DNA from: Thainema sp.
GTDB lineage: Bacteria > Cyanobacteriota > Cyanobacteriia > Phormidesmidales > Phormidesmidaceae
Direction of reading: 5' to 3'
Assembly: GCA_052168235.1 (NCBI GenBank)
Contig: JBQLZK010000005.1
Span: 1-64,000 of the forward strand
Length of the DNA stretch: 64,000 bases
A program made the translations under genes and the position numbers. Under the pieces are notes generated by a model. The model was given only the letters and a program-made list of their open reading frames with translations, was not told the DNA's origin and ran no database searches. Shown one piece after another: positions 4,510-39,899 of the stretch. Numbering within the stretch: position 1 is the stretch's first letter; each line of letters opens with the position of its first letter.

Positions 4510-4556
4510 GGAAATTGTTTTGTAGCGCGGCTCCGCCGCGCTACAAAACAATTTCC
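4510..4556. repeat. Perfect palindrome, 22-bp arms, loop TCC
   Basis: GGAAATTGTTTTGTAGCGCGGC-tcc-GCCGCGCTACAAAACAATTTCC. Confidence 0.95.
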
Positions 4557-4640
4557 GATAAAGTCTAATAAATACGTACAGGCAAACATGCATCAATGGT
4601 AGTCCTCAAAATCATTACCTGAATACCACTACCGAATCAG

Positions 4641-5201
4641 TTACGGGTTGGTAGCAGATTGCCGTCGATAAAGCTGTCGCTGCCAGCTCAAGAAGTTGGG
4701 TTGGCTGATGCGCTGTTGGCTAGCTTGTTGGCTGAGATAATTGAGATAGCGAGTTCGAGCCGCTTCGACTTCATCAACAGAAACGGCAATTAAACGTGCG
4801 ATCTCATCCAGCGGCACGGTCTGCACAGATTCCAAACCAAACCGACGGCAGAGGAAACTATAGAGCTGATTGGCCCGCTTGACGGCAGACGATTCAGCTA
4901 CAATGCGTTCTAGAATTTGGATACTTTGAATTCGTTGCGTTTTGGCAAATTGCCAAGCCGCCATTGATGTTGTTCGGCTGTATTTGACCTGACCAATGAC
5001 ATAGATGGTTTGACAAGCAAATGAATCGGGTGTGGCTAAACTCGCACCTGGCCAAACTAAATCATTAAAAAATCGTCCAGAGAGAATCAGGCCACCTGTG
5101 CAGTGAGGAGACAGCGCTAATGATGGATTGGTATGTACAGCTAAAGGTGGTAGAGCTGCTGATCCGGAAGTAGATACAGTTGCAAAGTACGATGAAAGCA
5201 T
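4641..5201 (-). CDS. Hypothetical protein, possible Crp-like C-terminal HTH
   Basis: 186 aa; VPLDEIARLIAVSVDEV resembles an HTH preceded by an 'AVKRA..L' helix. Confidence 0.5.
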   Translation of the reverse strand: MLSSYFATVSTSGSAALPPLAVHTNPSLALSPHCTGGLILSGRFFNDLVWPGASLATPDSFACQTIYVIGQVKYSRTTSMAAWQFAKTQRIQSIQILERIVAESSAVKRANQLYSFLCRRFGLESVQTVPLDEIARLIAVSVDEVEAARTRYLNYLSQQASQQRISQPNFLSWQRQLYRRQSATNP

Positions 5202-5321
5202 GTGGAGATTTCGGTCTGGGGTTCTTCACTCTACGTAGGAATCCAGACGGTTCTGGAGCATCCAAATGAACTCTCCGTGAACTCAGGTAATGAAATCGTG
5301 AAGGATTGCCTTCTTATACGC

Positions 5322-5354
5322 TTTAGCGGTGTTGGCTTGGCCAACACCGCTAAA
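5322..5354. repeat. Perfect palindrome, 15-bp arms, loop TTG
   Basis: TTTAGCGGTGTTGGC-ttg-GCCAACACCGCTAAA. Confidence 0.95.
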
Positions 5355-5380
5355 ACTCGCACCAAAATATGCTGAAAAAA

Positions 5381-6115
5381 CTAGAGAGCGCCTAATTCAG
5401 TTGCTGCTGGAGCCGCGCAATCCGTTGCCTCTACAGGCTGAGTTGTTACCTGCACAGTCTCAAAGCCCGCTGTCATCAATAGCTGCGTGACGGCAAGTTC
5501 CGCTTTTTGATTGGCTTCCATCAAAATTTGCTGCTGACAGGCCGCATCGACCAGTTTTGCTAACGATTCCCGTTGAGCCAGAGACTGAAGTTCTGGGGCC
5601 GCATCGGGGCCGAGGCTAAACAATCCCCGGTCATAGTCGTAGACCTGAGAGCGGTTGACATCAATTTTGCTGTCGAGAACTTGGGCAGGTGGCAGTTGCA
5701 CTTGAACGCTATCGCCGCTGACCTGGATATCGGTCGCTGTAATCGCGCTCAAATCAACCCCAGCCCGCACCTCGCCATAGGCAATGTAGAGCAATGTGGT
5801 TTTGCCAATGGTGTATCCGGCAATGGTGCGATCGCGGTGGGCAGGCACAACGGATTCCATGCCAAATACCGCTGTCGTCAGCTCACTGGCTCCCCGAATT
5901 TGTTGCAGCACAACTGAGCGCACATCGGCTTTAGCCTCTGATGGTGCAGGCGACAGCATGACGCGCAACCCCTGCCAAAATCGGCCATCCCGCTGAGTAG
6001 CAACCAGCAACAGCAGCAGTAGGCAAACTGCGATCGCATTTGTACCCAATGACAAAAAGTGTTTGATAACGCGCATTGGCCCACTCAAAATACCAGGAGA
6101 ATAGTGCTGTTTCAT
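5381..6115 (-). CDS. DUF4230 domain protein
   Basis: N-terminal TM; SELTT, GEVRAGVDLS, VQLPPAQVL motifs. Confidence 0.8.
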   Translation of the reverse strand: MKQHYSPGILSGPMRVIKHFLSLGTNAIAVCLLLLLLVATQRDGRFWQGLRVMLSPAPSEAKADVRSVVLQQIRGASELTTAVFGMESVVPAHRDRTIAGYTIGKTTLLYIAYGEVRAGVDLSAITATDIQVSGDSVQVQLPPAQVLDSKIDVNRSQVYDYDRGLFSLGPDAAPELQSLAQRESLAKLVDAACQQQILMEANQKAELAVTQLLMTAGFETVQVTTQPVEATDCAAPAATELGAL

Positions 6116-6177
6116 GGCTGCCCCTAATCCTGTTCTGATTGTAGGTCAAAATTCTTTGGTACAAGCTAACTCATACA

Positions 6178-6214
6178 AATGCCAGCAACGCGGCGATGCC
6201 GCGTTGCTGGCATT
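6178..6214. repeat. Perfect palindrome, 17-bp arms, loop GAT, downstream of thyX
   Basis: AATGCCAGCAACGCGGC-gat-GCCGCGTTGCTGGCATT. Confidence 0.95.
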
Positions 6215-6226
6215 ACCGATTACTGA

Positions 6227-8308
6227 TTAAGGCGACAAGCGGGCTTTCTTGAGGCGATTGGTTTCGTACCAATCTGCGATCGCAGGTACCCAAGCTTGAA
6301 AATGCGGCCAGATAAACTCACAGAGCTTCTGCGCTTCCAGTTGAGCATCGGCTTTCCAGCGCAGGTCGAGCAGGTGCATTAGCGATCGCACATTGGCGGA
6401 TAACACCCAATGTTGCCGAACGTCAAACGGAATTAGTCCGCGAGCATGTTCTTCAGCAAAGCCTTGATCAATCCGAGTTTTATAGCGGCGGCAGGCTTCT
6501 AAACACCATTCCAGATCCTGCTGCCGTAGTTCTTCTGTGTAGTCGTAGTGCTTGCCCTGGCGATCGGTGTAGCTCCCAATGGGACGCAGGTAAAACACGT
6601 CTTCAATATCGCGTTTGCCGTTGACGACATCAACGATACGGCTTCCCGTGTACCGGAAGGAGTTGTGAACAACCAAGCCGTTCGCAACAAAGTTATGCCA
6701 AGGTTCCTCGACTTCGAGGTCATAGGTCATTTGGCAACCTAAATATTCAACCCGAATGACGCGCAGAACATGAGCTCTCAGCTTGCGTCCATTGGGTTTT
6801 GGTTTAGGACTCCATGCCTGTGGCTGTTTAATGGGCTGAAAGTCCGCTGCAAAATCAGCTTCCAAATGATTGTGATGAATATATTCGTGGCAGTTTTTAC
6901 AGAGGCTGACTAGATTCTCCAACTCATAAGCCAGTGATTCATCTGCATACACTGGGACAAGATGATGAGCGTGAAGCTGGCCACCTCGGATGCCACAGCG
7001 CTGGCAAATATAATCAAATTTTTCATGGATCTGCGACGCAACTTGGCGAGTCCACGCACCAATTAGCTCTCGCCCGTCGGATGTTCCACCTTTCCAAAAA
7101 TTCGATTCTGCCCCACGCTTGGTGTATTTCGCTGCGTTTTCCCGGCGTCGCTCAATACTATTTGCAGATAAATTCAACTGATATCCTGGCTTGCCTTTAT
7201 TCCAAGGTGTAAACCCTTTTTGGAAAGGCGTCGGTCGCTTATTCAGAGAGAAGCCATAGTGGTAAACCCATTTTTTGACTGCCTCAACTGAACAGCCAGC
7301 CAGCCGAGCAATTTGATCAACATGCAAACCTTGCTGCAACTGGTCTTCAAGCCACTGCGGATCGCGATAAAGCGCATTGGGATTGTAGTTCCAGGGCTTT
7401 TGTCCGGGCTGAAACTGGGTATTTTGCTGATTGAGCTTTAGCTCAAAGCGCTTTGCCCAATCTTTGACCGTAGTTTCAGAACATTCGGCCAAGTTGGCGA
7501 TTTCTTGGGTTGTCAATCCGCGCTCAATTTGTTGGCTCAGCCACGCTCGATCGCGATACAGTCCTGTACCAACTGCTGTAACACCGTTTGCCATCACGGC
7601 GCACTGGCGAGTCATCCCCACAACTTCGCCACTTGCCGTTGTTTCTAAACCGACGGCTTCGCCCATCGTTTGCCAACCCTGGGTTGTCAATAGGCGATGA
7701 TTGGTGGTGCAGTCCAGCGTTCTACCATCTTCCATCGTCAAGCGGTAAACAGGTTGTACCCCGCTGCACATCACATCGCGAATATGGCTTGTTTCAAAGT
7801 ATCCCGTTTCTTCATTCAGCACTCGCAGGTGCATCTTTTTGAGGCGAGTTTTGCAGTCGCGCCGATATTGACCGGGTGGTTCGCCGTTGCGTCCGCGAAT
7901 GTTGCGATCGCGGATTGCTTTTTCACCGTTTGCCCACAAATCGTAAAGCTCTGCGATTTTGTACTTTCTCAAACCGCCAGAGGCATGAACAAACGTGATT
8001 TCAGTATCACCCGCGAGGCACTGGACATCAAAGCTCACGCCGACCCGATGAGTCCGAATTTGCTGCATGGTGGAGTGAGGAAACCAGCCGCAGTTCAGCA
8101 CAATCTGGGGATGCTCTAGGGGGCCGTAGTGGCCGCGTCCGCCTTTGAGCAAATTGGTGATCACAATCTCGCCGCACTTTTCTTCGTTGGGCCAGCGATC
8201 GCGTTCATCCCAAACGAACGCTTCCGAATAGTCCTGGTGCATGGCAGCGTAAATTGTCTGCTGCGGATTGGGGGTTTGAGCGATAACCTCAACGGTAAAG
8301 CGATCCAT
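6227..8308 (-). CDS. thyX: FAD-dependent thymidylate synthase, intein-containing
   Basis: GHYGPLEH; ThyX motif RTHRVGVSFDVQ/SFRY split by the intein; C-terminal RSLMHLLDLR..DAQLE; start ATG at 8308 (MDRFTVEV). Confidence 0.93.
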   Translation of the reverse strand: MDRFTVEVIAQTPNPQQTIYAAMHQDYSEAFVWDERDRWPNEEKCGEIVITNLLKGGRGHYGPLEHPQIVLNCGWFPHSTMQQIRTHRVGVSFDVQCLAGDTEITFVHASGGLRKYKIAELYDLWANGEKAIRDRNIRGRNGEPPGQYRRDCKTRLKKMHLRVLNEETGYFETSHIRDVMCSGVQPVYRLTMEDGRTLDCTTNHRLLTTQGWQTMGEAVGLETTASGEVVGMTRQCAVMANGVTAVGTGLYRDRAWLSQQIERGLTTQEIANLAECSETTVKDWAKRFELKLNQQNTQFQPGQKPWNYNPNALYRDPQWLEDQLQQGLHVDQIARLAGCSVEAVKKWVYHYGFSLNKRPTPFQKGFTPWNKGKPGYQLNLSANSIERRRENAAKYTKRGAESNFWKGGTSDGRELIGAWTRQVASQIHEKFDYICQRCGIRGGQLHAHHLVPVYADESLAYELENLVSLCKNCHEYIHHNHLEADFAADFQPIKQPQAWSPKPKPNGRKLRAHVLRVIRVEYLGCQMTYDLEVEEPWHNFVANGLVVHNSFRYTGSRIVDVVNGKRDIEDVFYLRPIGSYTDRQGKHYDYTEELRQQDLEWCLEACRRYKTRIDQGFAEEHARGLIPFDVRQHWVLSANVRSLMHLLDLRWKADAQLEAQKLCEFIWPHFQAWVPAIADWYETNRLKKARLSP
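6662..8020 (-). mobile_element. Intein (453 aa) with HNH homing endonuclease
   Basis: Starts CLAGDTEI; block B CTTNHRLLT; ends TYDLEVEEPWHNFVANGLVVHN followed by Ser; internal CQRC..HAHH..NLVSLCKNCH HNH motif. Confidence 0.93.
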
Positions 8309-8432
8309 CACGGTGCGTCTAACTCGACAGGGTTTCTTAGCATACCTGCGATCGCAGTTCTGGAGTTGCGATCGCACACCAAATCTTAATAGACAACTTT
8401 TGGATGCTCATGATCAGAAGCCAAGCTCAGAG

Positions 8433-8768: not shown

Positions 8769-8941
8769 GGGTACAACGAGTCTGATGTGTTACTGGTCGT
8801 CAACGGCGGATTAAATACTGTGAATTGAGCACGTAATCAATCCGCCTACCCATACTAAGGGAAAATTCCCTGCCTAAATCTGCCAAAACTCTAGAAAATC
8901 GTGTTTCAACAACCTATAGAATCTTTCGTCCAATTAGCCAT

Positions 8942-13185: not shown

Positions 13186-13243
13186 AAGCACATAAAAAGC
13201 GAAGTCATGCTTATGTAAGCATGACTTCGCTTTTTATGTGCTT
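13186..13243. repeat. Perfect palindrome, 28-bp arms (possible bidirectional terminator)
   Basis: AAGCACATAAAAAGCGAAGTCATGCTTA-tg-TAAGCATGACTTCGCTTTTTATGTGCTT. Confidence 0.95.
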
Positions 13244-13293: not shown

Positions 13294-13337
13294 CATAAAT
13301 TGTGATGTGGGGCGGTGCTCCCACATCACAATTTATG
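13294..13337. repeat. Palindrome, 18-bp perfect arms, downstream of murA
   Basis: CATAAATTGTGATGTGGG-gcggtgct-CCCACATCACAATTTATG. Confidence 0.93.
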
Positions 13338-13354: not shown

Positions 13355-14743
13355 CTAAAGCACTATTCCTGGCGATTTGACAGATGATGCCTCAGGCGAC
13401 TCAGCACTATGGTGAATGCGCTCGATTTCAGCACCTAGCTGCTGTAGTTTCTGCTCTAGATTTTCATAGCCTCGGTCAAGATGCTGTAAGCCCTGAATGA
13501 TTGTTTCTCCCTCAGCCGCTAATCCAGCCAGCACTAATGCAGCAGATGCGCGTAAATCTGTGGCTACAACTGGAGCTCCAGACAAGAAGGGAACCCCACG
13601 CACTATCGCATTGTTGCCTTTCACGCGAATATCAGCTCCCATCCGCTGTAGTTCTGCGACATGGCGCAGTCGATTCTCAAACACAGTTTCAGTGATGATA
13701 CTGTTGCCTTCGCTCAGCGTCAAAAGCGCCATGAACTGAGCCTGCATATCAGTAGGAAAGCCAGGATAGGGCAGTGTTTTAATGTCGGTCGCTATCCGCT
13801 GCTCACCCGGAGTGATACGCATGCGGTTCATTCCTTCCATTTGCACAAGCGTGCCAATCTCACGCAGTTTGGCAACTACGGCTGCAATATGGTCTGGAAT
13901 GACGGGAGATAAAGAAATTTCCGACTGGGTAATAGCTCCTGCTATCAGGAACGTACCCACCTCAATTCGGTCAGGAATGATGGCATAGTCTGTACTGTGC
14001 AAGCTGGGAACACCCGAAATCACAATCGTCTTTGTGCCAGCCCCACGGATGCGCGCACCCATTGCTCGACAGAAGTTTGCCAAATCGACCACTTCTGGCT
14101 CTTGAGCGGCGTTTTCGATGATAGTTTCACCTTCAGCTAGGGTGGCAGCCATCATCAGCGTTTCGGTTGCGCCAACGCTGGGATAGTCCAGATAAATCTT
14201 CGCTCCCTGGAGGCGGCGACGATTGCCAGGAATAGCAGCGTGAACTGTGCCGTGATCGATATGCACATCTGCGCCCAGCGCCTGAAGACCTCTCACGTGC
14301 AGTTCAACCGGTCGAGCACCAATAGCACAGCCACCCGGCAGAGGAACCCGCGCCACGCCTAGACGGGCCAACAGTGGCCCAATCACGAAAAAGCTTGCCC
14401 GCAACTGGCTGACAATCTCATAGGGTGCGCGAGAATGGACAATATGGCGTGAGTCGATTTCAAGAGTATCTTGGTGACGCTTGACCTTTGCTCCTAGAGC
14501 CAACAAAACGTCACTCATGCGAGCAATGTCAACTAAATTCGGAACGTTGCGAATTCGGCATTCCTGTGAGCACAGTAAGGTGCCTGCAAGGATGACCAAT
14601 GCCGAGTTCTTGGCCCCGCTGATATTGACATGTCCACTGAGCTGGCGCTTGCCGCGAATTCGCAGCGCCGCATCACCCGTTGCCGAGGATGGGGAGTTAT
14701 TTGATAGACCGAGAGAGGGATTAATGGCTCTATCCTCCAGCAT
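13355..14743 (-). CDS. murA: UDP-N-acetylglucosamine 1-carboxyvinyltransferase
   Basis: [20 protein letters not shown] (catalytic Cys), [20 protein letters not shown]. Confidence 0.97.
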
Positions 14744-14942: not shown

Positions 14943-15026
14943 GCGGAACTGGCGGAATTGGTAGACGCGCTAGATTCAGGTTCTAGTGTCCGCAAGGACT
15001 TCCGGGTTCAAGTCCCGGGTTCCGCA
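14943..15026 (+). tRNA. trnL: tRNA-Leu(CAG)
   Basis: Acceptor GCGGAAC/GTTCCGC; D-loop GAATTGGTAGAC; anticodon stem CTAGA-ttCAGgt-TCTAG; long variable arm; GGTTCAAGTCC; CCA not encoded. Confidence 0.96.
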
Positions 15027-15468: not shown

Positions 15469-15523
15469 GACAGATAGTTTTTGAGAAGTTGCACAGAGCA
15501 CAGCTTCTCAAAAACTATCTGTC
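15469..15523. repeat. Palindrome, 20-bp perfect arms, upstream of TrmH gene
   Basis: GACAGATAGTTTTTGAGAAG-(15 nt)-CTTCTCAAAAACTATCTGTC. Confidence 0.93.
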
Positions 15524-16937: not shown

Positions 16938-18371
16938 GTGAGCGAAGCATTTGATTATGATTTGATCATCATTGGCGCAGGCGTCGGTGGACATGGAGCC
17001 GCGCTGCATGCTGTTGCCAATGGATTAAAAACGGCCATTGTGGAAATGGCAGATATGGGTGGAACCTGTGTCAACCGAGGCTGCATTCCGTCAAAGGCTC
17101 TCCTTGCCGCTTCGGGTCGAGTGCGCGAATTGCGCAATGCCCATCACCTCCAGTCTCTGGGTATTCAACTGGGTGGGCTATCATTTGACCGAGCTGCGAT
17201 CGCAGATCACGCAGCCAATCTGGTCGCCAAGCTACAGGGCGATTTGACCAACAGCTTGACCCGTCTAGGCGTTGATACACTGCGCGGTCGGGGCCGAATT
17301 GCAGGTACTCAGAAGATTACGGTGACGGGTGAAAACGGCGAACAGGTCTTCACCGCCCGCGACATCATCTTGGCTCCTGGTTCGATTCCCTTCGTACCGC
17401 CAGGGATTGAGGTTGATGGCAAGACTGTATTTACCAGTGACGACGCGATTAAGCTGGACTGGCTGCCGGACTGGGTGGCCATCGTCGGCAGTGGCTACAT
17501 TGGCCTAGAGTTTTCCGATGTCTACACGGCACTCGGTTCAGAAGTCACCATGATTGAAGCGCTGGATCAGCTAATGCCCGGATTTGATCCCGATATCGCT
17601 AAGCTGGCGCAGCGGGTACTGATCACGCCCCGCGATGTCGAAACGCGAGTGGGACAGTTGGCCATGAAAGTGACGCCCGGTTCTCCCGTTGTGATTGAGC
17701 TGGCCGATGCTAAGACGAAGGAAGTGACTGAAGTTCTAGAAGTTGATGCCTGCCTCGTAGCAACGGGCCGGATTCCAGATACCAAAGATTTAGGTTTGGA
17801 GTCTATCGGGCTGGAAACCGACCGTCGTGGATTTATTACCGTGGACGATCACATGCGTGTCCTGCGGGATGGCCAGCCTGTCGAGCATTTGTGGGCGATT
17901 GGTGATGCGACGGGTAAGATGATGCTGGCCCATGCGGCTTCGGCTCAAGGCATCGTCGCGGTTGAAAATATCTGCGATCGCGATCGCACCGTCAACTACC
18001 GCAGCATTCCCGCCGCCGCCTTTACTCATCCCGAAATTAGCTTTGTCGGTCTGACGGAACCTGCGGCTAAAGAATTGGCCGATGCTGAGGGATTTGAGAT
18101 TGCCACCACGCGCAGCTACTTCAAGGGCAACTCTAAGGCGTTGGCCGAAGGAGAAACGGACGGCATCGCTAAAGTCATTTACCGCAAGGATACGGGCGAA
18201 ATCCTCGGTGCTCACATTCTGGGCCTGCACGCATCCGACCTGATTCAAGAAGCCGCAAATGCGATCGCGCAGGGACTATCAATTCAGGATCTGTCGTTTA
18301 TGGTGCATACCCACCCAACCCTCTCAGAAGTACTTGATGACGCCTATAAACGGGCTGTTGCAGCACATTAA
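16938..18371 (+). CDS. lpdA: Dihydrolipoyl dehydrogenase
   Basis: [13 protein letters not shown] redox motif, GAGVGG FAD site, HTHPTLSE C-terminus. Confidence 0.97.
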
Positions 18372-18377: not shown

Positions 18378-18484
18378 CTAAGGATTGTGGATTAAATAGC
18401 CTGTAAACCATTCCATCTGTAGGGGCACGGCAATGCCGTGTCCCTACTCCAAAGATTGCACCTTATTAAATCTACGCTCCTAAG
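18378..18484. mobile_element. MITE-like element with a central GTAG-type REP hairpin (18419..18447)
   Basis: Imperfect 22-nt terminal inverted repeats (16/22) around GTAGGGGCACGGC-aat-GCCGTGTCCCTAC. Confidence 0.6.
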
Positions 18485-18522
18485 CAAGAGCCCCTTCCCG
18501 TGACGCGGGAAGGGGCTCTTGC
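18484..18522. repeat. Palindrome, 17-bp perfect arms
   Basis: GCAAGAGCCCCTTCCCG-tgacg-CGGGAAGGGGCTCTTGC. Confidence 0.95.
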
Positions 18523-18532: not shown

Positions 18533-19432
18533 TTAGGCGCTTGCCAGCACCAGATTAGCGGCTTTTGTCCAGGTGTAGGGCTGCTGGCGGGCAACGCTCT
18601 TAAACGTATCGCAGGTGATATCTACGCCCAGCCAAGTGCCTAAAATCTCTAAATCCTGATCAAAAATAACCTTTAGCCTTTCCACATTTTCCGGTGATAC
18701 GGTGGGCTTTTGCTTAACCGTTAACTGTCCCCGTACCCAGGTGCGGAACGACTTTGGCACCATTTGGCGACGTAGTGCTTCCAACATCGAGTTGTGAACC
18801 ACAAACTCCAGTACCGGATGATTGCGAATGCGATCGCTGGAGGCGTTTTGCTGCTGCGCCTCATCCTGCCAAATCGGCTGGTGGGGATACCCCAAGAATT
18901 CACAAACTCGCTCTAGCTCCTCTTGAGGATACGCACAGAACCGCTCGAAGAAAATCGGCAGAATACGATCTGACCCAAAGGTTTCCAAGTAGGGCCGCAA
19001 CTGCATCGCGTATTGACTGTACTCAATCAGCGTCGGATAGTCATCCAGAACCGCATTGATATCAAACGTCGAAACCTGGCGCTTTGTCCACTCATGCACA
19101 AAATGGGAAACTAGCCGATCGATCGGATGGCGCATCATGTAGATGAATTTGGCCTGGGGAACGTACTGCTGTAGGCGTTCAATGGTGTGAGGGTAGGTCG
19201 GTAACTTTGTGTAATGAGTGCTCGATTCGCCGCATAAGTCGCCTGAATCAGCGTTGGCAAATAAATCGGTATACCAGTTCAGACCCCGCTCATATATTTC
19301 ATCATTGCTAAAAAAATTCGGTTCTTTAGGCTCAGTCATAAAGAAGCCAGGTTGTGCAGCCAACTGATCATGTAGCGTACTGGTTGCACATTTCATGCCG
19401 CCAATGATGATGAAGTGGGGGAAACGAGCCAT
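18533..19432 (-). CDS. Sulfotransferase family protein
   Basis: PHFIIIGGMKCATSTL (5'-PSB) and MRHPIDRLVS (3'-PB); ATG 19432 after GAGGAG. Confidence 0.9.
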   Translation of the reverse strand: MARFPHFIIIGGMKCATSTLHDQLAAQPGFFMTEPKEPNFFSNDEIYERGLNWYTDLFANADSGDLCGESSTHYTKLPTYPHTIERLQQYVPQAKFIYMMRHPIDRLVSHFVHEWTKRQVSTFDINAVLDDYPTLIEYSQYAMQLRPYLETFGSDRILPIFFERFCAYPQEELERVCEFLGYPHQPIWQDEAQQQNASSDRIRNHPVLEFVVHNSMLEALRRQMVPKSFRTWVRGQLTVKQKPTVSPENVERLKVIFDQDLEILGTWLGVDITCDTFKSVARQQPYTWTKAANLVLASA

Positions 19433-19785
19433 GTAGTGCTCCTCAGTCAGTAAAGTTACAAATCGACACACTTACTGTTTAACCCTACATCAGATAAATC
19501 GCCTATTCTGTAATTTCACGAGCAGGCTTTTGAACTCTTTATCAAGCGTGAAAGCAGTTGAAGAGTCAATAAATCCGAGGCCTTATCCTGCTAGAGATAG
19601 AGGATGGATTCATTAATTTACACTCGGTTATTTTGCTGCTACTGGGCGATAGCAAACAGTTTCCACTCGGTTTTGATGCTGAGTATTGAGGGTAGCGATT
19701 GTATTATTTGTAGTATAAACCTGCGGAATTGCTGACAAAAAAGCTGTAGATCCGGTCATACCTCTAAAATTCGAGGGCAGGACTC

Positions 19786-20772: not shown

Positions 20773-20784
20773 TGGCAACTCATC

Positions 20785-20825
20785 AGCGTAAAGCGGGGAC
20801 GGCGTTGCCGTCCCCGCTTTACGCT
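20785..20825. repeat. Perfect palindrome, 19-bp arms, overlapping the ribD stop codon
   Basis: AGCGTAAAGCGGGGACGGC-gtt-GCCGTCCCCGCTTTACGCT. Confidence 0.95.
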
Positions 20826-21964
20826 TGTTGATTATTTGAATCTACCAAATACCCCTCGATCAAATAATCATCGCCGACGGTACGGCAGGTGAGCTGGCTG
20901 AGCGGCAGCGCATCGGTCATTTTTTGCAGACCCATTTCACCGACGGGCGAGGGAGCCCGCTGTCCACCGATGAGTTTCGGTGCAATAAACGCCCAGATTT
21001 TTTGCACACTGCCGGAGCGAATCGCTTCCGCCGCCAAGACTCCGCCACATTCCCAGAGGACGCTGTTTAAGCCATGCTGGCAGAGATTGGCCATTAGATC
21101 GTCCGGTGTCAGCCGATCAAATTCCAGCACTTCGACACCGCGATCGCACAATTTAGCTTTCAACTCTGGATTGGCTCCCATTTCCGTGGCCACCAGCGTC
21201 GGCGCAATGTCCACATCCCAAAGCTTGGCATCCAACGGTAGATCCAAACGGCGACTCATGACCACGCGCAGCGGATTGCGATCGCAAATGCCGTGGCTAG
21301 TCAACAGCGGATTATCTTTGCGTAGCGTATTGCCGCCGACAATTACCGCATCGCAGATCGAGCGCAGCCGATGCACCTCCTGGCGTGCCGCTGCCCCTGT
21401 CACCCAAGCGCTGTGGCCTGTACTAGCGGCGATTTTGCCGTCCAGCGTCATGGCGTATTTCAAAATGCCAAAGGGGCGCTGATGGCGGACGCGGTGAATA
21501 AACGCTTCGTTCAATTTCTGACAAGCCGCTTCTTCCACGCCAACAAGGACTTCAATTCCGGCATCCCGTAATCGCTGAATGCCGCCGCCTGCGACGCGCG
21601 AATCGGGATCAACCATGCCGACAACGACTTTTTTTATTCCCGCTGCAATCAGCGCTTCGCTACAGGGCGGGGTGCGGCCATAGTGATTGCAGGGTTCCAA
21701 ACTGACGTAAGCCGTTGCGCCTTGAGTGCGATCGCCTGCCGCTCGTAGCGCAAAAACTTCGGCATGGGGCTGTCCGGCCTGGGGATGAAACCCTTCGCCG
21801 ACAATTTCGGGTTCTCCAGTCTGGCTTTCCTGGACAATGACGCAGCCGACCATTGGGTTAGGCGAAGTCCGGCCTGCCGCCTGTCGCGCCAGGTTGATAC
21901 AGCGCTGCATCAATGTGCGATCGCGCTCTGTTCCCAATGTTTTAACTGAACTCGTTTCAGACAT
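20819..21964 (-). CDS. ribD: Riboflavin biosynthesis deaminase/reductase
   Basis: PNPMVG, HAE, LEPCNHYGRTPPC, KYAMTLDGKIA, DNPLLT. Confidence 0.96.
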   Translation of the reverse strand: MSETSSVKTLGTERDRTLMQRCINLARQAAGRTSPNPMVGCVIVQESQTGEPEIVGEGFHPQAGQPHAEVFALRAAGDRTQGATAYVSLEPCNHYGRTPPCSEALIAAGIKKVVVGMVDPDSRVAGGGIQRLRDAGIEVLVGVEEAACQKLNEAFIHRVRHQRPFGILKYAMTLDGKIAASTGHSAWVTGAAARQEVHRLRSICDAVIVGGNTLRKDNPLLTSHGICDRNPLRVVMSRRLDLPLDAKLWDVDIAPTLVATEMGANPELKAKLCDRGVEVLEFDRLTPDDLMANLCQHGLNSVLWECGGVLAAEAIRSGSVQKIWAFIAPKLIGGQRAPSPVGEMGLQKMTDALPLSQLTCRTVGDDYLIEGYLVDSNNQQA

Positions 21965-22345: not shown

Positions 22346-22475
22346 AAAATCTAAACTCAATGACGCTGCACTATTAGACCTTTGGAACAATAAAGGTGTA
22401 AACACGCACGTATTCGTGTTGTTTATCACAAGTTTCAAGGTTGTCACCGTGTAATTGTTGAATTTGGATAGAATC

Positions 22476-22763
22476 ATGTATACCCGTTGTATCGTTTGCT
22501 CCAGCTTGATTACAGCTGTGCTAGGAGCCGTGCTTGGTGTTGCGATCGCAGAAATTAGTCAACACGATCTGTATCAAGATAAAACTCATCGTAACTATGC
22601 CCTGATCGGTGCTGGCGCTGGCTTAGTCGTCGGGGCTGGACAAGAAGCCATTCGTCAGACAATTCAAGCTGATCGGGACGCTCACCCGAACTGGAACTAT
22701 ACCTTCGAAGAGTCAGTTCAGGATTATCGCCGCTATCTAGAACAAAACTGGAACGATTCTTAA
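22476..22763 (+). CDS. Hypothetical membrane protein (glycine-zipper-like)
   Basis: Two hydrophobic Gly-rich segments (AVLGAVLGVA; GAGAGLVVGAG). Confidence 0.65.
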   Translation: MYTRCIVCSSLITAVLGAVLGVAIAEISQHDLYQDKTHRNYALIGAGAGLVVGAGQEAIRQTIQADRDAHPNWNYTFEESVQDYRRYLEQNWNDS

Positions 22764-22765
22764 AC

Positions 22766-22824
22766 AAAACCAATGCTGTTGTGTTGTCCCCGCAGCGTGG
22801 GGACAACACAACAGCATTGGTTTT
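22766..22824. repeat. Palindrome, 26-bp perfect arms, filling a convergent intergenic gap
   Basis: AAAACCAATGCTGTTGTGTTGTCCCC-gcagcgt-GGGGACAACACAACAGCATTGGTTTT. Confidence 0.95.
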
Positions 22825-23956
22825 AGAAGTCAACGCCTCGCTTCAAATCAACGCCTTTCTCGGCGTAGTGCTTGTGGCAGAATACCTCAGAATGCACGCT
22901 GGCCAGATTGAAATAAGCGGGGGGATTTTTGCAGCGTCCGGTCATAATCACCTCAGTGTCGCGGGGCTTTCGCAGGAGTGCCTGCACAATCGGCTCCTCC
23001 GGCAGCAGCTCCAAATCCACTGTGGGATTAATTTCATCCAGAATAATCGTTTTATAAAGACCAGATGCGATCGCAGCTCGGGCAATTTCCCAGCCCCGCT
23101 CAGCTTCTACATAGTCCAATTCTTGCTGCTGTCCCCGCCAAACGATAGCATCCCGACCACAGCGCTGATGGTCAACTAGATTGGGATAGCTCTGTCGTAA
23201 AGCTGCGATCGCGGCATCTTCGGTGTAACCTTGTCCACCCTTGAGCCACTGTACAATCAGTACCCGGTGGGAAAGGTCTTGGCTGATCCCTTTGCCGATT
23301 GCTTGTAGGGCTTTACCGAGGGCGCTAGTGGATTTGCCTTTGCCCGCACCAGTGTAGATTTCAATGCCTTCAATTCCGTGTTCTGCTGCTTCAGGATGGT
23401 GATGAGGCCGCATTTCTGAATGCAAATCGGCAATGTCCAACAGGGCCTGCGGTGCGCCCCGCCCCGTGGCGATGATTTCCAGATGATCTGGCTTGCGCTT
23501 CAGCGTCCGTACCACTTCATCCACAGGCAATAACCCTAAATCCAACAGGGGATTGAGTTCATCCAGCACGACAACGGAATAGAGACCAGATGCGATCGCA
23601 CCTTTGGCAATATCCCAGCCCCGCTGCGCTTCCTGCTTGTCAAATTTGGTGATGTCATCCGGCCCAAAAAATTCGGCACGTCCCGTCCGTACCTGGTCAA
23701 TTAAATGGGGAAAACCTCGCTGGAGCGCATCAATAGCCGCATCTTCGCTGTAGGCTCGTCCTGGCCCTTTCAAGAATCGTAGGAGTAGCACCCGCGTTTG
23801 CACATCAGACCGAATGCCCAAGCCGATAGAGCGTAGGACAACCCCTAGCGCAACCTGGGACTTGCCCTTGCCCAAACCGTCATAAACATGGATTTGTCCC
23901 GCAACACGCTCAGATATAGCTTGGGCGGTGCGGATGCCGATACCTGTTCTCGTCAT
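22823..23956 (-). CDS. cobO: Cob(I)yrinic acid a,c-diamide adenosyltransferase, two-domain cyanobacterial form
   Basis: Two GKGKS P-loops, two LDE.N motifs, TGR motifs; ATG 23956. Confidence 0.92.
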   Translation of the reverse strand: MTRTGIGIRTAQAISERVAGQIHVYDGLGKGKSQVALGVVLRSIGLGIRSDVQTRVLLLRFLKGPGRAYSEDAAIDALQRGFPHLIDQVRTGRAEFFGPDDITKFDKQEAQRGWDIAKGAIASGLYSVVVLDELNPLLDLGLLPVDEVVRTLKRKPDHLEIIATGRGAPQALLDIADLHSEMRPHHHPEAAEHGIEGIEIYTGAGKGKSTSALGKALQAIGKGISQDLSHRVLIVQWLKGGQGYTEDAAIAALRQSYPNLVDHQRCGRDAIVWRGQQQELDYVEAERGWEIARAAIASGLYKTIILDEINPTVDLELLPEEPIVQALLRKPRDTEVIMTGRCKNPPAYFNLASVHSEVFCHKHYAEKGVDLKRGVDF

Positions 23957-24089
23957 GGTACTCAATTCGGAACCTCTATGTGTAGCACCTAAGGAGACTA
24001 ACTGCCTTCATTGTCTCCATATATAGCGTGATTTGAGCTTATTAGCTGATTCATTTTGCAATTGATCATCCTTGGCAGGTCTAAATACA

Positions 24090-26434: not shown

Positions 26435-26483
26435 CAATCTGATTGCTTACAGGTGCGCGTTGCACCTGTAAGCAATCAGATTG
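26435..26483. repeat. Palindrome, 22-bp perfect arms
   Basis: CAATCTGATTGCTTACAGGTGC-gcgtt-GCACCTGTAAGCAATCAGATTG. Confidence 0.95.
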
Positions 26484-26495: not shown

Positions 26496-26546
26496 AAAGG
26501 ATGAGGGTTTTAGCGACTGTAACAGTCGCTAAAACCCTCATCCTTT
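26496..26546. repeat. Palindrome, 25-bp perfect arms
   Basis: AAAGGATGAGGGTTTTAGCGACTGT-a-ACAGTCGCTAAAACCCTCATCCTTT. Confidence 0.95.
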
Positions 26547-34440: not shown

Positions 34441-34457
34441 ATCACCGAAGCCAGAAA

Positions 34458-35270: not shown

Positions 35271-35485
35271 ATTGCGCGATCCCTCCAACAGCCAGCGCCA
35301 CTATTGTCGCGTAATTTTGTGACGTAATCTTGCAATCTGAATTGCGATCGCAGCTTGATATTGTGCCCAAAGTCCCTGGAGTTGGCGCATAACGGCGAAT
35401 TCCAAGAGTGGCTGATTCACTCGGTGCTGGGCTATCGTGGTGGAGCGTACTTCGCATCACACCGCAGACTGACACACCACGACCT

Positions 35486-37267
35486 ATGAAAAAGCTGTTA
35501 CTAATCGGGCTGTTTTTGGGAGCCATGCTCTGGGCACTGATGTCCTATTCTGGACTGGCCAATCAGGGCACGTATGACAGTTTGATCCTCAACTTTGCCG
35601 ATGATATTCCGAATGAGCAGATTGAGCAGGAACTAAGTGCGATCGCAAAACAGTATGGCACTTCATTTCGGCTGAATAGTTCCTTTTCAACGGATGAAAA
35701 TCTCTATTTAGTTGAAGGGGATCAGGCTCTACTCAAGCAATTACGCCGCTCAGAATTGGCCAAAGAAACGGAAACCATTGAGCCAAATTATCAATACTCA
35801 ACGCTGGCGATTCCCAATGATCCCGACTACAGCAAGCAGTGGAATCTGCGCTCAATCGGTATGGAAAAAGCCTGGGAAGAGACCCAAGGTGAGGGCGTTG
35901 TCGTCGCTGTGATCGATACGGGTGTGAGTCGCGTTCCGGATTTGAAGGACACCAAGTTTGTCAAAGGCTACGATTTTGTCAACGATCGCGAGGATGCCTC
36001 AGACGATAACGGGCACGGCACTCATGTTGCTGGAACCATCGCTCAATCCACAAACAATAAATATGGTGTGGCGGGGATCGCCCACAAAGCCAGCATTATG
36101 CCACTCAAAGTCCTCTCCGGTTCCGGTGGCGGCAGCGTAGCCGATATTGCCGAAGCAATTCGCTATGCGGCAGACAATGGGGCAGACGTGATCAACATGA
36201 GTCTAGGTGGCCCTGGCGATACCGATTTGCTGCGGACAGCGACCGAGTATGCCTATCGGAAAGGGGTTGTAGTGATCGCAGCGGCGGGTAACGAGCAGCG
36301 CAACTCCGCGTCTTATCCGGCCCGCTATCCGCACGTTCTGGCAGTTGCGGCATTGGATGCCACCGGACAAAAGGCTCCCTACTCAAACTTTGGCGCAGGC
36401 GTGGATATTTCCGCACCAGGGGGATCGCTGGTCAGCGGTGAAGCAGGCGGCATTCTGCAAAACACGATTAATCCCCAAACCGGGGAATCTGTCTTTTCAG
36501 CCTTTCAAGGCACCAGCATGGCCGCCCCCCACGTAGCGGGTGTAGCCGCGTTGATTAAGTCCCAAGGTGTTGAAACGCCCGACGAGGTGTATGAAATCCT
36601 GCGTGAATCATCACAGAAAGTCGAGAACGACACGTTCAACCACTTTGGCGCGGGTCAACTCAATGCATCAGAAGCGGTGCGATTCGCGGGTCACGGCAAG
36701 ATTAGCCTACGCCATTTCTTCCGCTGGCTGGTGGAAAATGGCTATCTCAATCTCAAGTTCTGGTTCGACGGTGGTGTTGTCGCGCTATTACCAAAACTGG
36801 CGATGGTGATTGGCTCATATCTACTGGCTTGGCTGCTGCGGGTTTACTTACCGCTGGTCTGGACGTGGCCGCTCTCCTGGGGATTGATTATGGGCAGCAC
36901 GGGACTGTTCCTGTTCCGAGGACTGTACATTTGGGATTTACCCCAGTGGCCATTCCGCGTGGCGGGTAGCGCGATCGCAGAATGGGGTAACGTCATCCAA
37001 GGCAGCAGTCTACTGAATCCGATTTTTGCTAGCGTGTTGATTCCCTTTGTCCTGATGGCCCTATTGCTGGGACATTCTAAGTGGAAGTGGTTCATGATTG
37101 GCACGAGCCTGGGCATGGCGGTGTTCTTGGGCGTAAGTGCGATCGCAGATCCAAGTTTAATGTGGCTCGGTCAGGGCACAATCGCCCGTGGGTATCTCGC
37201 GTTTAATGCGCTGCTCTGCTATGGTTTGGCGTATCTAGCCACCAAAACGGAGGTGAAGCCTGTATGA
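35486..37267 (+). CDS. S8 subtilisin-like serine peptidase with C-terminal membrane domain
   Basis: Triad VAVIDTG, HGTHVAG, GTSMAAPHVAG; N-terminal signal; hydrophobic C-terminus. Confidence 0.93.
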   Translation: MKKLLLIGLFLGAMLWALMSYSGLANQGTYDSLILNFADDIPNEQIEQELSAIAKQYGTSFRLNSSFSTDENLYLVEGDQALLKQLRRSELAKETETIEPNYQYSTLAIPNDPDYSKQWNLRSIGMEKAWEETQGEGVVVAVIDTGVSRVPDLKDTKFVKGYDFVNDREDASDDNGHGTHVAGTIAQSTNNKYGVAGIAHKASIMPLKVLSGSGGGSVADIAEAIRYAADNGADVINMSLGGPGDTDLLRTATEYAYRKGVVVIAAAGNEQRNSASYPARYPHVLAVAALDATGQKAPYSNFGAGVDISAPGGSLVSGEAGGILQNTINPQTGESVFSAFQGTSMAAPHVAGVAALIKSQGVETPDEVYEILRESSQKVENDTFNHFGAGQLNASEAVRFAGHGKISLRHFFRWLVENGYLNLKFWFDGGVVALLPKLAMVIGSYLLAWLLRVYLPLVWTWPLSWGLIMGSTGLFLFRGLYIWDLPQWPFRVAGSAIAEWGNVIQGSSLLNPIFASVLIPFVLMALLLGHSKWKWFMIGTSLGMAVFLGVSAIADPSLMWLGQGTIARGYLAFNALLCYGLAYLATKTEVKPV

Positions 37268-37482: not shown

Positions 37483-37498
37483 GTTACAAAAGCACAGC

Positions 37499-37535
37499 AG
37501 AAAGGGCGATTGGCACAGTGCCAATCGCCCTTTCT
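37499..37535. repeat. Perfect palindrome, 18-bp arms
   Basis: AGAAAGGGCGATTGGCAC-a-GTGCCAATCGCCCTTTCT. Confidence 0.95.
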
Positions 37536-37561
37536 AAATATTTGATTACCGCTAAGACAGC

Positions 37562-37822
37562 CTATAGCTTGCCCTCAAACCGCTGATACCAAATCCAGTT
37601 GCCCAGAACAGTGATGAGGAACACGATACCGCCGCCAACCAAAGCCAGTGTCGGATTGTAGCCACCACGACTTAAGTTTTCCATCCAGAGGTGAGTGCGA
37701 TCGGACGGCAGCAGCAGATTCATCATAAATGGCGACAGATACATCAGCGCTCCACCGACCAACAGCCAGCCCACCATTGAGGTCAGCAGAAAAATTGTTT
37801 TCGCAGTCGATTGAGTACCCAT
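37562..37822 (-). CDS. Hypothetical membrane protein
   Basis: 86 aa, two TMs. Confidence 0.7.
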   Translation of the reverse strand: MGTQSTAKTIFLLTSMVGWLLVGGALMYLSPFMMNLLLPSDRTHLWMENLSRGGYNPTLALVGGGIVFLITVLGNWIWYQRFEGKL

Positions 37823-37824
37823 TT

Positions 37825-38178
37825 TTAACTATCTTCAGATGTGTCTTGCAAAATTTTTTCCAAGGTTGTCTTTAATCTTGGCAAGTCTACTTGAATGGTT
37901 GCCCAGATGATCTCTAGGTCTACCTGAAAATATTCGTGAATAGCTACGTTCCTCATGCCTCGAATATCTAACCAAGGTATTTCAGGATAGGCCGCTTCCA
38001 CTTCTAGTAATATAGTCGCTGTAGGCTCACCAATCACAGCGAGTCCGTACAAAACAGCTTTCAATGTGCGTCGATCCTGACAAAACTGGGCAAAAGTCAT
38101 ACCTTCAACAAACTGCTGAATTTCGACGACTTCATCCAACATGTCTTGGATTCTTTCGAGGAAACCTCTAGAAGGCAC
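37825..38178 (-). CDS. HepT-like HEPN ribonuclease toxin (DUF86)
   Basis: IPWLDIRGMRNVAIHEYF = RX4HXY motif. Confidence 0.9.
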   Translation of the reverse strand: MPSRGFLERIQDMLDEVVEIQQFVEGMTFAQFCQDRRTLKAVLYGLAVIGEPTATILLEVEAAYPEIPWLDIRGMRNVAIHEYFQVDLEIIWATIQVDLPRLKTTLEKILQDTSEDS

Positions 38179-38461
38179 GCACTGCCTCCTTCAGCACTGT
38201 TTCTTTTAAAGTTGGTTTGAGAGAGGTAGGTGTGCCTAAATCCACGGAGCAGCCCAAGATATCCTCTAAATAGCGCTTCAATCCCAGAAACGTAAATAAG
38301 CCAACAGGTTTCTCGAACTCCACCAGCAGATCTACGTCGCTTTTGGCATGAGTGGTATCTCTTGCAACTGAGCCAAACAAAAATAGCGCTTTTACTGAGT
38401 ACTGCTGTAGCTGCTCTCGATGTTCGGATAACAAGTCTAAAACTGTTTGTCTACACAGCAT
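38168..38461 (-). CDS. Minimal nucleotidyltransferase antitoxin (MntA-like)
   Basis: FGSVARDTTHAKSDVD = GSX10DXD; overlaps the HEPN gene. Confidence 0.9.
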   Translation of the reverse strand: MLCRQTVLDLLSEHREQLQQYSVKALFLFGSVARDTTHAKSDVDLLVEFEKPVGLFTFLGLKRYLEDILGCSVDLGTPTSLKPTLKETVLKEAVRAF

Positions 38462-38492
38462 TGATTAGCTCCTCCTAAGTCTAGACGCGCTA

Positions 38493-38566
38493 GTAGGTTG
38501 GGTTGACGAAGGAAACCCAACAGGATAGGTGAGGTGTCGGGTTCCGCGTTGCTCAACCCGACCTAC
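38493..38566. repeat. REPIN-like inverted pair of GTAG REP units
   Basis: GTAGGTTGGGTTGA..AACCCAAC and GTCGGGTT..TCAACCCGACCTAC. Confidence 0.8.
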
Positions 38567-38570
38567 GAGA

Positions 38571-39782
38571 TTAAGCCATTACCGTTTGTACTGCTTTTAG
38601 GTCGAAGATTTTGGCGATGGTTTCTTCGACGGCTCGGTCGGGCGTAGATGCTCCGGAGGTAATGCCAACGGTGATTTTGCCAGCGGGTAGCCAGTTTTGC
38701 GTCACCGTCAAATCCTCATGCAGCGGCTTGTGTTCAATCTGTTGATCCGCGCCAATCCGGTCGGCGCTGTCGATGTGGTAGGACGGAATGCCACGCTCTA
38801 CGGCGATTTCCTGGAGGTGAGTCGTGTTCGACGAGTTGTAGCCACCGATGACCACCATCACGTCGATGTCTTCCTCAATGAGCTGGAACATAGCGTCCTG
38901 CCGCTCTTGGGTGGCATCACAGATGGTGTTGAAGCTCTGGAAGTGTTCGCTGACCTCGGTGGGGCCGTACTTTTTCATCATTGTGCGTTCCAGCAGCTTG
39001 CCGATCTGCTCGGTTTCGCCCTTCAGCATGGTGGTTTGGTTGGCGATGCCGACGTAGGCCAAATCCACATCGGGATCAAAGCCTTCCGAGTGAGCATGCT
39101 TGAACTTCTGCATGAACTCAGCCTTATCACCACCATTCAGGATGTAGTCGGCGACATATTCCGCTTCTTTCAGGTTCAGCACCACCAGGTATTTACCCGC
39201 AAAGGAACTGGTGGCAATAGTTTCCTCGTGCTTGTACTTGCCGTGAATAATTGAGGTAAAGTCTTTTTTCTTGTGCTTTTCGACGGTGTTCCACACTTTA
39301 GACACCCAGGGGCAGGTGGTGTCCACAATGGTGCAGCCGCGATCGCTAAGTAGCTGCATCTCCTGAACGCTGGCACCAAAGGCAGGCAAAATCACCACAT
39401 CGCCCTGTTCCACCACAGAAAAGTCTTTCTGACCGTCCTGCACTTCGATGAAGCCGACGTTCATCTCTTTGAGCCGCTGATTCACGGACGGATTGTGAAT
39501 AATCTCATTCGTGATCCAAATGCGCTCAGTGGGGAAGTGCTGCCGCGTTTCGTAGGCCATTGCTACGGCTCGCTCCACACCCCAGCAAAATCCGAAGGCT
39601 TCGGCTAGGCGAATTGTAACGTCGCCTCGGGTGAGGGTGTAGTTGTTGTTGCGAATTTCTTGGATCAGGCTGCTCTGATACTCCGTCTGGAGCTGATCGG
39701 CAACGGCAGCTTCATGGCCGAAGCCGCGCCGATGATAGTGTTCGGACTGCTGGAGGGAACGCTTAAAGGCTTTGGTATCCAT
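38571..39782 (-). CDS. ispH: 4-hydroxy-3-methylbut-2-enyl diphosphate reductase
   Basis: [43 protein letters not shown]. Confidence 0.97.
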
Positions 39783-39846
39783 AGGATGTTTGTAAAGTTG
39801 CCGTTGGTAATCAGCCTATCAAATTCAGGTCTTCAATTCATACTGA

Positions 39847-39899
39847 AAAAAGCGGTTAGAGAGGGGCACGCGACGCGTGCCCCTCTCTAACCGCTTTTT
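39847..39899. repeat. Perfect palindrome, 25-bp arms, loop GAC
   Basis: AAAAAGCGGTTAGAGAGGGGCACGC-gac-GCGTGCCCCTCTCTAACCGCTTTTT. Confidence 0.95.

Follow-up and report, generated by a model that had tools for sequence, protein, structure and literature searches.

The window described here (G000:C5:1-64000) is a 64,000-nucleotide stretch of the draft genome of a Thainema species (G000; 7.54 Mb, 50% G+C, 205 contigs), and the gaps between its genes hold long perfect palindromes, that is to say, inverted repeats whose two arms pair without a mismatch around a short centre. In the genome as a whole, these palindromes are a mixture of mobile palindromic repeats and single-copy hairpins at gene ends. 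To judge from their position and layout, the single-copy hairpins are most likely bidirectional intrinsic terminators, and perhaps they also act as protective stems at the 3′ ends of transcripts. The reading favoured here is that these gene-end hairpins, likely two-way terminators, are probably kept long and perfect mainly by template switching during replication, with selection retaining the useful ones.

The initial annotation of the window had listed 13 palindromes as one set with unrelated arms and a shared GC-N3-GC centre, and had suggested that an active process may seed on a REP (repetitive extragenic palindromic)-like hairpin and copy flanking DNA into a mirror image, producing bidirectional terminators; a search for genes of REP-associated tyrosine transposases (RAYT) was among its proposed checks. 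The observation itself has been confirmed, and the idea of copying and the terminator anatomy are supported; seeding by REP/RAYT, recent creation and the uniformity of the set have not. All 13 palindromes are present (as shown in Table 1), and 12 of them have perfect arms of 15–28 bp around centres of 1–8 nucleotides (nt), the exception being 15469, with perfect 20-bp arms around a 15-nt centre. The GC-N3-GC centre was correctly read at 4510, 5322, 6178, 13294 (where the centre has one extra base), 20785 and 39847, and so were the centres one base off at 18484 and 22766. The arms are unrelated to each other within the window, but three of the 13 palindromes (4510, 13294 and 15469) belong, as ordinary mobile repeats, to genome-wide families. 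This leaves ten single-copy gene-end hairpins, seven of them in convergent gaps and three shortly past a stop codon in tandem gaps. Predicted RNA folding energies of the 13 range from −24.7 to −49.2 kcal/mol. The part of the window from 40 to 64 kb holds no palindrome in the same census; it consists of co-directional gene arrays with one convergent gap only.

For the genome-wide census, perfect palindromes were defined by arms of at least 14 bp and a loop of at most 9 nt. The long perfect class is confirmed by this tabulation, with 1000 members in G000, and because an order-3 Markov genome of equal size holds none above arm 13, chance is excluded as their source. Counted by arm length, the numbers dip to 52–60 at 12–13 bp and then hold at ~50–130 per length over 14–25 bp, so that the long palindromes form a separate length class and are not the tail of a distribution of short hairpins. 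A comparison by blastn-short finds no second locus in the genome for 367 of the 1000, 1–9 other loci for 131 and at least ten for 502. That is to say, 633 (~63%) belong to repeat families resembling REPs or miniature inverted-repeat transposable elements (MITEs), and 367 make up the single-copy class, to which ten of the 13 in the window belong.

On the evidence of their sequences and sites, the repeat-family palindromes behave as mobile DNA. Their sites were compared with those of a congener, G001 (same genus, 6.6 Mb, of which 860 kb were used), the sole congener compared, and of the 45 multi-copy palindromes whose flanks could be matched, 36 are missing from the G001 site or have diverged there. 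Among the window elements, only 4510, 13294, 15469 and the GTAG-headed REP element at 18419 occur in many copies with conserved arms; a GTAG head is presumably a REP feature. The element at 13294 has no counterpart at the matching G001 site and is therefore read as an insertion. Repeat families 1–4 are ~97% uniform, and about one fifth of their copies carry one mismatch. In families 0, 6 and 11 (for example, C27:63182 and C16:100276), the copies are unlike each other at several arm positions and yet each is perfect, which points to concerted evolution of the arms, or regeneration from one arm, in mobile repeats as well.

The single-copy class is marked first of all by its position. Gene context was taken from crude gene calls based on open reading frames (ORFs; 4921 genes, 76.5% coding), on which 172 of the 367 single-copy palindromes fall into convergent gaps, 152 into tandem gaps and 26 into divergent ones, with 9 within genes and 8 at the edges of contigs. 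Of the intergenic bases, 17% belong to convergent, 54% to tandem and 29% to divergent gaps. Palindromes in tandem gaps lie a median of 38 nt from the upstream stop versus 153 nt from the next start. Over 500 adjacencies to gene 3′ ends, the stop and the palindrome are a median of 33 nt apart, and in 16 of them the arm overlaps the coding end. The inner ~9 bp of the arm are 55–71% GC, and a GC-rich stem shortly past the stop is what is looked for in a terminator. Outward of about position 11, T makes up 37–51% of the 3′ arm and 52–59% of its final four bases, the 5′ arm being the mirror image with A. The order of the parts is thus A-tract, GC stem, C-G-closed triloop, GC stem and T-tract, and since the A and T tracts pair with each other, the palindrome is lengthened by them. 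This plan, together with the location at 3′ ends, is the anatomy of a bidirectional terminator, and from both we infer that the hairpins would end transcription. The mean arm length is 20.0–20.5 bp in tandem gaps versus 20.4 bp in convergent gaps, although one direction would suffice in tandem gaps. Within the cyanobacterial lineage, stem-loops past genes are also found in chloroplast mRNAs, whose 3′ inverted repeats are regarded mainly as elements of 3′-end processing and stability, and this would be a possible role for those hairpins here that lack a T run.

The centre proposed for the window palindromes holds genome-wide. Among single-copy palindromes, 3-base centres are closed by C-G in 60 of 80 cases and read GC-N3-GC in 44 of 80, one-base centres have C at −2 in 64 of 80 (the background of C in that arm being 0.27), which gives the C-G-closed triloop again, and odd centres number 246 versus 121 even ones. 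Repeat-family palindromes obey the closure rule too (222/263 and 99/106). For small loops, whether of DNA or of RNA, no closing pair is more stable than C-G, and the consensus therefore fits fast hairpin nucleation, so that a seed derived from a REP is not needed to explain it.

The second regularity concerns the borders. As had been remarked in the window, the outer arms are flawless and irregularities gather at the centre. Directly past the outer end of the arm, complementarity is at chance (0.23–0.30 at offsets 2–15); on the inner side of the first inner mismatch the value is mostly 0.46–0.67 (range 0.37–0.67), with 0.23–0.42 at the innermost offsets, which have 10–19 cases each. Perfect-armed single-copy inverted repeats have spacers of 0–9 nt in 279 cases, 10–19 nt in 105, 20–29 nt in 27 and 30–400 nt in 29; these counts, like those of inner complementarity, use a strict 14-mer filter, which passes 279 at spacers of 0–9 nt against the 367 of the census. 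When single-copy status is taken from BLAST copy counts, replacing an over-strict 12-mer uniqueness filter, at least 16 matched pairs are found in 392 single-copy hairpins, 283 of them perfect, 52 with a single mismatch and 57 with more than one. Their 282 mismatches are biased to the inner half of the stem, with 73 of G.T types versus 82 of A.C types. If point mutation had eroded the arms, some pairing should persist beyond their ends, and if mismatches were tolerated at the RNA level, G.U pairs should be favoured; neither is observed.

The evolution of the stems was followed against G001, which is 84–91% identical to G000 over the larger syntenic blocks (mostly genes). Divergence at 4-fold sites is 0.376 (37,377 sites), and at this neutral distance an unmaintained 20-bp stem would be lost. 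Both flanks were located in G001 for 51 single-copy palindromes, and a hairpin was counted as retained when at least 60% of the stem pairs were aligned on both arms. By this measure, the orthologous hairpin is retained in 28 of 51 cases, and in the remaining 23 it is absent, replaced or unrecognisable. The 492 aligned stem pairs of the retained hairpins comprise 411 unchanged pairs, 44 paired Watson-Crick changes, 35 one-sided changes (13 of them to G.T) and 2 paired changes that are not Watson-Crick. With independent arms, 2.7 paired Watson-Crick changes would be expected, so that the observed 44 are the mirrored changes looked for under template switching. At least one paired change occurs in 20 of the 28 hairpins, and 15 of them have no mismatch in G001. 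The recent creation suggested by the initial annotation is not supported by this comparison: for the 28 of 51 single-copy palindromes whose cores are shared with G001, both arms are equally old, an outcome that the initial annotation had itself named as refuting. With about half of the cores as old as the genus, most palindromes appear to be maintained and remodelled rather than newly made.

Two further patterns concern the loops and the arm ends. Loops were taken from 30 orthologous pairs, that is, the 28 retained hairpins and 2 just below the threshold. In nine pairs both loops have the same, non-zero length: the two are identical in one pair, exact reverse complements in four (c/g, tc/ga, tgc/gca and ca/tg) and different in some other way in the remaining four. 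For two of the inverted loops the flanks were checked by alignment (C13:68759 and C13:80896), and in both the flipped loop stands between stems that are unchanged or mirror-changed. Because the loop offers no pairing for selection to restore, loop flips speak for copying. In 16 of the 29 pairs that can be compared, one species has arms longer by at least 4 bp, and in 5 of these it is G001 (counted by reading rather than by script). The left arm at C2:289779 is formed by the final codons and stop of a gene, which are conserved in G001, and its mirror image is found in G000 only; at 39847, the arms are 26 bp in G000 versus 7 bp in G001. With one congener, gain and loss look alike in such arm-extension comparisons. 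Mirrored length differences are seen as well, as at C10:93311.

Taken together, the excess of paired changes, the four loop inversions, the sharp borders and the mirrored coding ends agree with the initial idea of copying at the DNA level, by template switching or fold-back synthesis, and from them we infer a step in replication. In the excerpted sources, template switching is described as evening out and extending the arms of inverted repeats and inverting their spacers (PMC8604942, PMC13100816, PMC8794818, PMC5941160), spacer inversion being a stated outcome of switching between the two arms (PMC8604942). Applied to the present hairpins, the nascent strand would fold back during replication at the stable C-G-closed triloop core and copy its own first arm, in an intramolecular template switch. 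Such copying would wipe out mismatches in the outer stem and would lengthen the arms into the flank, at times across a stop codon. The centre would be the primer-template junction, so that irregularities there would stay and the outer borders would be sharp, and the loop would occasionally come out inverted. Selection would then keep the hairpins at places where stopping or protecting a transcript helps. The length and perfection of the stems most likely do not stem mainly from selection acting pair by pair.

Several points weigh against this reading, both as to termination and as to copying. The gene-context results depend on the crude ORF-based calls given above. A 3′ arm with three or more T among its last five bases is found in 65% of palindromes in convergent gaps and in 51–52% of those in tandem gaps. 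A terminator scan over 20 kb flags 3 of 9 listed palindromes (20785, 22766 and 13186); these 20 kb hold 2 further palindromes of the 13, and the T-run rule of the scan fails perfect palindromes that lack an A start and a T end. The scan total, 30 sites versus 21.3 (standard deviation 4.9) in shuffles, is not clearly higher. The RNA material, against which termination would be judged, consists of assembled contigs from a ~90% relative: two of these contigs end 18–30 nt from gene ends near 5375 and 18382, which is a weak hint at most, one RNA contig has 193 other letters in place of 20778–20836, and the Logan contigs of runs X1, X2, X3 and X7 placed on the window give no transcript starts or ends. 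As to copying, selection on the RNA stem alone also yields paired changes. The stems change at 0.129 per site versus 0.376 at 4-fold sites, about one third of the neutral rate, and the palindromes are gathered at 3′ ends, so that selection certainly acts and copying is not the sole process. With one congener the changes are unpolarised, and an extension in G000 could equal a decay in G001. Finally, sbcD, xseA, recJ and an RNase HII-like match are present alike in palindrome-rich and palindrome-poor genomes. Over 31 genomes, sbcD is above the cut-off in 28, including G000 and G001; xseA is matched in 30 and is missing only in the palindrome-poor G005; recJ is found in all 31; and an RNase HII-like match, below the family cut-off throughout, is found in 28, including G000, G001 and the palindrome-rich G022. 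Loss of genes that suppress palindromes or template switching was therefore rejected as the cause of the trait, no pattern being seen among the four genes searched (the search did not extend to sbcC, xseB, mutS and others).

The nearest rival to replication template switching is selection without copying, in which two-way terminators would have been made perfect by point mutation and compensatory fixation. The marked concentration of palindromes in convergent gaps and at 3′ ends, the A-tract/T-tract anatomy, the 44 paired changes and the slower evolution of the stems than of 4-fold sites would all follow from it. It meets difficulty with the exact inversion of 4 of the 9 comparable loops, where there is no pairing to select, with complementarity that falls to chance one base past the arm, where erosion should leave a residue, and with G.T mismatches that are not in excess over A.C ones. 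Nor does it account for arms as long in tandem gaps as in convergent ones, though one direction would do there, for arms of 20–35 bp, far above usual terminator stems, or for related cyanobacteria that hold 0–2 such palindromes per 40 kb; it is accordingly considered unlikely, if still the most serious competitor. An alternative that keeps the copying and assigns it to a dedicated enzyme system is given a small chance: some lineages (this genus, G022 and the sources of the metagenome loci L117 and L118/L119) would carry a lineage-specific, possibly transferable palindrome-writing activity that nicks at, and nucleates on, the C-G-closed triloop hairpin and mirrors the flanking DNA, gene ends among it. 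The patchy and recurrent distribution, in which 11 of the 16 other relatives with 32 kb or more sampled hold none, the triloop centre common to single-copy and repeated palindromes, and families 0, 6 and 11, whose copies are unlike each other yet perfect, would suit such a system, and if it were true, a dedicated activity would make and refresh two-way transcript-end signals and keep diverging repeat copies perfect. Against it, no candidate gene was found and Y1/HUH transposases do not follow the trait, half of the palindromes are old, and general template switching in replication already covers every pattern.

Two further explanations were weighed. If all palindromes were mobile, the single-copy ones would be lone or diverged REP or MITE members spread by a transposase. 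This would be in line with the further loci of 633 of the 1000 perfect palindromes, with the absence of 36 of 45 multi-copy palindromes from the matching G001 site, and with the different, family-like palindrome that G001 has at 5322; it is made very improbable by the 367 palindromes for which blastn-short gives no second locus, by the 28 of 51 kept at the same G001 site, by arms that include the stop and last codons of the neighbouring gene, and by G001, in which there is no Y1 transposase match at E≤1e-8. That imperfect hairpins were symmetrised in assembly or polishing can hardly be credited. The genome is indeed a draft in 205 contigs, and palindromes are described as disturbing assembly (PMC3017870, in excerpt), but palindromes of this class are also found in genomes and metagenome contigs that were assembled independently (G001, G022 and L117–L119), mirrored changes separate orthologous hairpins, and 20785–20825 is spanned with 0 differences by Logan contigs of runs X1 and X2, which may be from the source sample.

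The seeding by REP and RAYT proposed in the initial annotation does not hold, since Y1 genes do not track the palindromes. G000 has one IS200-type TnpA (153 amino acids) and one Y1 domain inside a larger protein; in G001, which is just as palindrome-rich, no Y1 match reaches E≤1e-8, and as many as 9 Y1 matches occur in relatives poor in palindromes. Membership of the REP/REPIN-RAYT system was therefore rejected for the 10 window and 367 genome single-copy palindromes, which have no shared arms and no matching RAYT. The larger protein, of 706 amino acids, is encoded at 520–2640 of locus L012 (G000:C2:256629-258749) and has a Type ISP restriction-enzyme C-terminal specificity domain; the Y1 (IS200-like) domain is inserted at residues 328–426.

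Among cyanobacteria, the palindrome-rich trait is patchy and recurrent. With the same arm threshold, the density of perfect palindromes is 133 per Mb in G000 and 150 per Mb in G001 (460 kb), and it is 5 per Mb in G005 (400 kb), 20 per Mb in G014 (200 kb) and 25 per Mb in G026 (200 kb), where all five are copies of one repeat. G022, which belongs to another family, has 13 in 40 kb (G022:C1:1-40000; L200, L201), G012 has 5 in 40 kb and G017 has 4 in 40 kb; the other 11 relatives, sampled over 32–40 kb, have 0–2 each, and six further relatives with 0.3–11 kb sampled have 0 each. Metagenome sequence around ispH, from 80 loci matched by an IspH query (682 kb in all; protein identity no higher than 83%, this genus not among them), was used for palindrome density only and holds 23 perfect palindromes in total, in 10 of the loci. 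In L118/L119, 10 kb hold 7 palindromes, the longest arms reaching 37 bp. Four of the 7 in L119 lie near stops, namely 2461, 2737 and 5520 at 10–15 nt and 7281 at 71 nt after ispH, and 5744 is a repeat of 2461. Both G022 and L118/L119 are denser in long perfect palindromes than G000. The spread in density among related genomes, more than 25-fold, points to a determinant of the rate of template switching or of the tolerance of palindromes.

A literature search, conducted outside subscription journals, found no published account of long perfect palindromes at gene ends in cyanobacteria. What is new is the large cyanobacterial instance; the kinds involved are already known, as gene-end repeats of E. 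coli, conserved perfect inverted repeats and the palindromes of Blochmannia. Bidirectional intrinsic (Rho-independent) terminators and the inverted repeats at E. coli gene ends (Miura et al. 2018, PMC6060812, in excerpt) share with the present hairpins a GC-rich stem-loop past the stop, the A-tract and T-tract, and enrichment in convergent gaps. The hairpins here differ in that the arms are 14–43 bp, flawless and a separate length class, that a clear T run is found in about half, and that termination is a prediction from layout and position. Perfect inverted repeats of E. coli have been treated under the quasi-palindrome model (Lavi et al. 2018, PMC5941160), and so have RNA hairpins at large (Monttinen & Loytynoja 2022, PMC8794818), so that, as far as the excerpts of these papers extend, the template-switch mechanism is already published for other organisms, and the novelty lies in the unusually large scale. 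Homogenised arms, mirrored changes of several bases and inverted spacers are features that the present case shares with quasi-palindrome correction, and the arm lengths that differ between the species may reflect arm expansion as well. In the excerpted E. coli data, perfect inverted repeats have arms below 20 bp, with a mean of 5.75 bp, and become rarer with length (PMC5941160), whereas here there are hundreds of 14–35 bp per genome, in some lineages only.

The long intergenic palindromes of Blochmannia (Williams & Wernegreen 2010, PMC3017870, in excerpt) are likewise long, unrelated to each other and intergenic, and have been argued to need active maintenance. They number 6–20 per genome, are 62–136 bp long with up to 3 mismatches allowed, and belong to a tiny, AT-rich endosymbiont genome; here, 1000 are found in a 7.5-Mb free-living cyanobacterium, and the evolution of the arms was followed against a congener. 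REP and REPIN elements are resembled by the GTAG-headed families with 14-bp arms (such as 18419), by the other multi-copy palindromes and by the small C-G-closed loop; the single-copy palindromes differ from them in having no shared arm sequence, and no RAYT-like gene follows the trait.

The ending of transcripts without Rho in cyanobacteria is an open question. In the available text of PMC12642595, the phylum is described as lacking Rho, and canonical terminators are given as ending only 22% of transcription units in S. elongatus. With a long perfect hairpin in about one fifth of convergent gaps (172 palindromes over 847 gaps, on the crude calls), the genome under study is a good place to study hairpin-dependent termination and the protection of RNA ends. 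It is also a large natural data set for the evolution of hairpins by template switching, with hundreds of orthologous stems, mirrored changes, loop flips and moving borders.

Table 1. Palindromic elements of the window, with their gene context, copies or terminator-scan result, and state at the matching site of the congener G001
Class	Position	Arms and centre	Context	Copies in G000 or scan result	Matching site in G001
Repeat-family palindrome	4510..4556	22-bp arms, 3-nt centre	84 nt downstream of stop of gene 4641..5201 (minus)	~108 loci; in 98-member family 1 (copies 97% alike)	absent
Single-copy palindrome	5322..5354	15-bp arms, GC-N3-GC	tandem gap, 26 nt past stop of DUF4230 gene (5381..6115, minus)		another perfect palindrome, 19-bp, family-like
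Single-copy palindrome	6178..6214	17-bp arms, GC-N3-GC	tandem gap, 12 nt past stop of thyX (6227..8377, minus)		no counterpart; heptamer repeats instead
Single-copy palindrome	13186..13243	28-bp arms	convergent gap, small ORF ending 13141 / aroA (13355..14743, minus)	terminator-like flag	kept; one paired change beside centre, 19 perfect pairs; outer part perfect in G000 only
Repeat-family element, ~80 bp	core 13294..13337	18-bp arms, 8-nt centre		~15 loci	absent; element also elsewhere in G001
Small repeat-family element	15469..15523	arms 15469-15488 / 15504-15523, 15-nt centre	30 nt before the start of the SpoU methylase gene; not a 3′-end site	~5 loci	absent
GTAG-headed REP element	18419..18447			~85 loci; family 4	absent
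Single-copy palindrome	18484..18522	17-bp arms	convergent gap, lpdA-like (16938..18371) / sulfotransferase gene (18533..19471, minus), 10 nt from stop of the latter		outer pairs kept; inner stem swapped yet palindromic; 4 paired changes; one A.C mismatch in the G001 hairpin
Single-copy palindrome	20785..20825	19-bp arms, GC-N3-GC	convergent gap; right arm holds stop and last bases of ribD (20819..21964, minus)	terminator-like flag	3 paired changes, one mirroring the TAA/TAG stop difference of ribD, and 3 one-sided
Single-copy palindrome	22766..22824	26-bp arms	fills convergent gap 22455..22763 / cobO (22823..23965, minus)	terminator-like flag, both strands	outer 8-9 bp and a right-arm-like piece kept, around ~270-nt insert
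Single-copy palindrome	26435..26483	22-bp arms	first of two in convergent gap 26395/26651		outside comparison (contig end, broken synteny)
Single-copy palindrome	26496..26546	25-bp arms	second in convergent gap 26395/26651		outside comparison (contig end, broken synteny)
Single-copy palindrome	37499..37535	18-bp arms	convergent gap, S8 peptidase gene (35408..37267) / 37562..37822 (minus)		14 perfect pairs, one paired change, centre widened
Single-copy palindrome	39847..39899	26-bp arms, A5/T5 ends	tandem gap, 47 nt past stop of GDSL lipase gene (39947..40813, minus), upstream of ispH		7-bp stem only, shared core; arm length difference 19 bp

Some minor features of the window and its surroundings are recorded here. 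At the G001 site orthologous to window positions 6116–6240 (G001:C5 ~96170–96410, locus L015), the 7-base repeat runs flank the gap in opposite orientations, that is, the heptamer arrays form inverted arms. The neighbouring thyX (Thy1) gene of the window, 6227–8377 on the minus strand, is split by an intein with HNH endonuclease and helix-turn-helix domains (Pfam Thy1, Intein_splicing and HNH). The ORFs 8942–9754 and 9828–10640 (minus) are neighbours of 270 amino acids each, have no Pfam matches and share ~68–70% DNA identity. Genes for a HepT-like RNase and an MNT-type nucleotidyltransferase at 37825–38461 (minus) overlap by 11 bases and resemble a toxin-antitoxin pair. Rfam at gathering thresholds gives one match only in the window, a tRNA gene at 14943–15026 (+), on which metagenome contigs stack. 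The 8-base palindrome GCGATCGC, which we take to be the cyanobacterial HIP1 repeat, occurs at 1.19 per kb in the window, and the filament-integrity protein FraC is encoded there; the HIP1-like repeat and FraC together point to a filamentous cyanobacterium.

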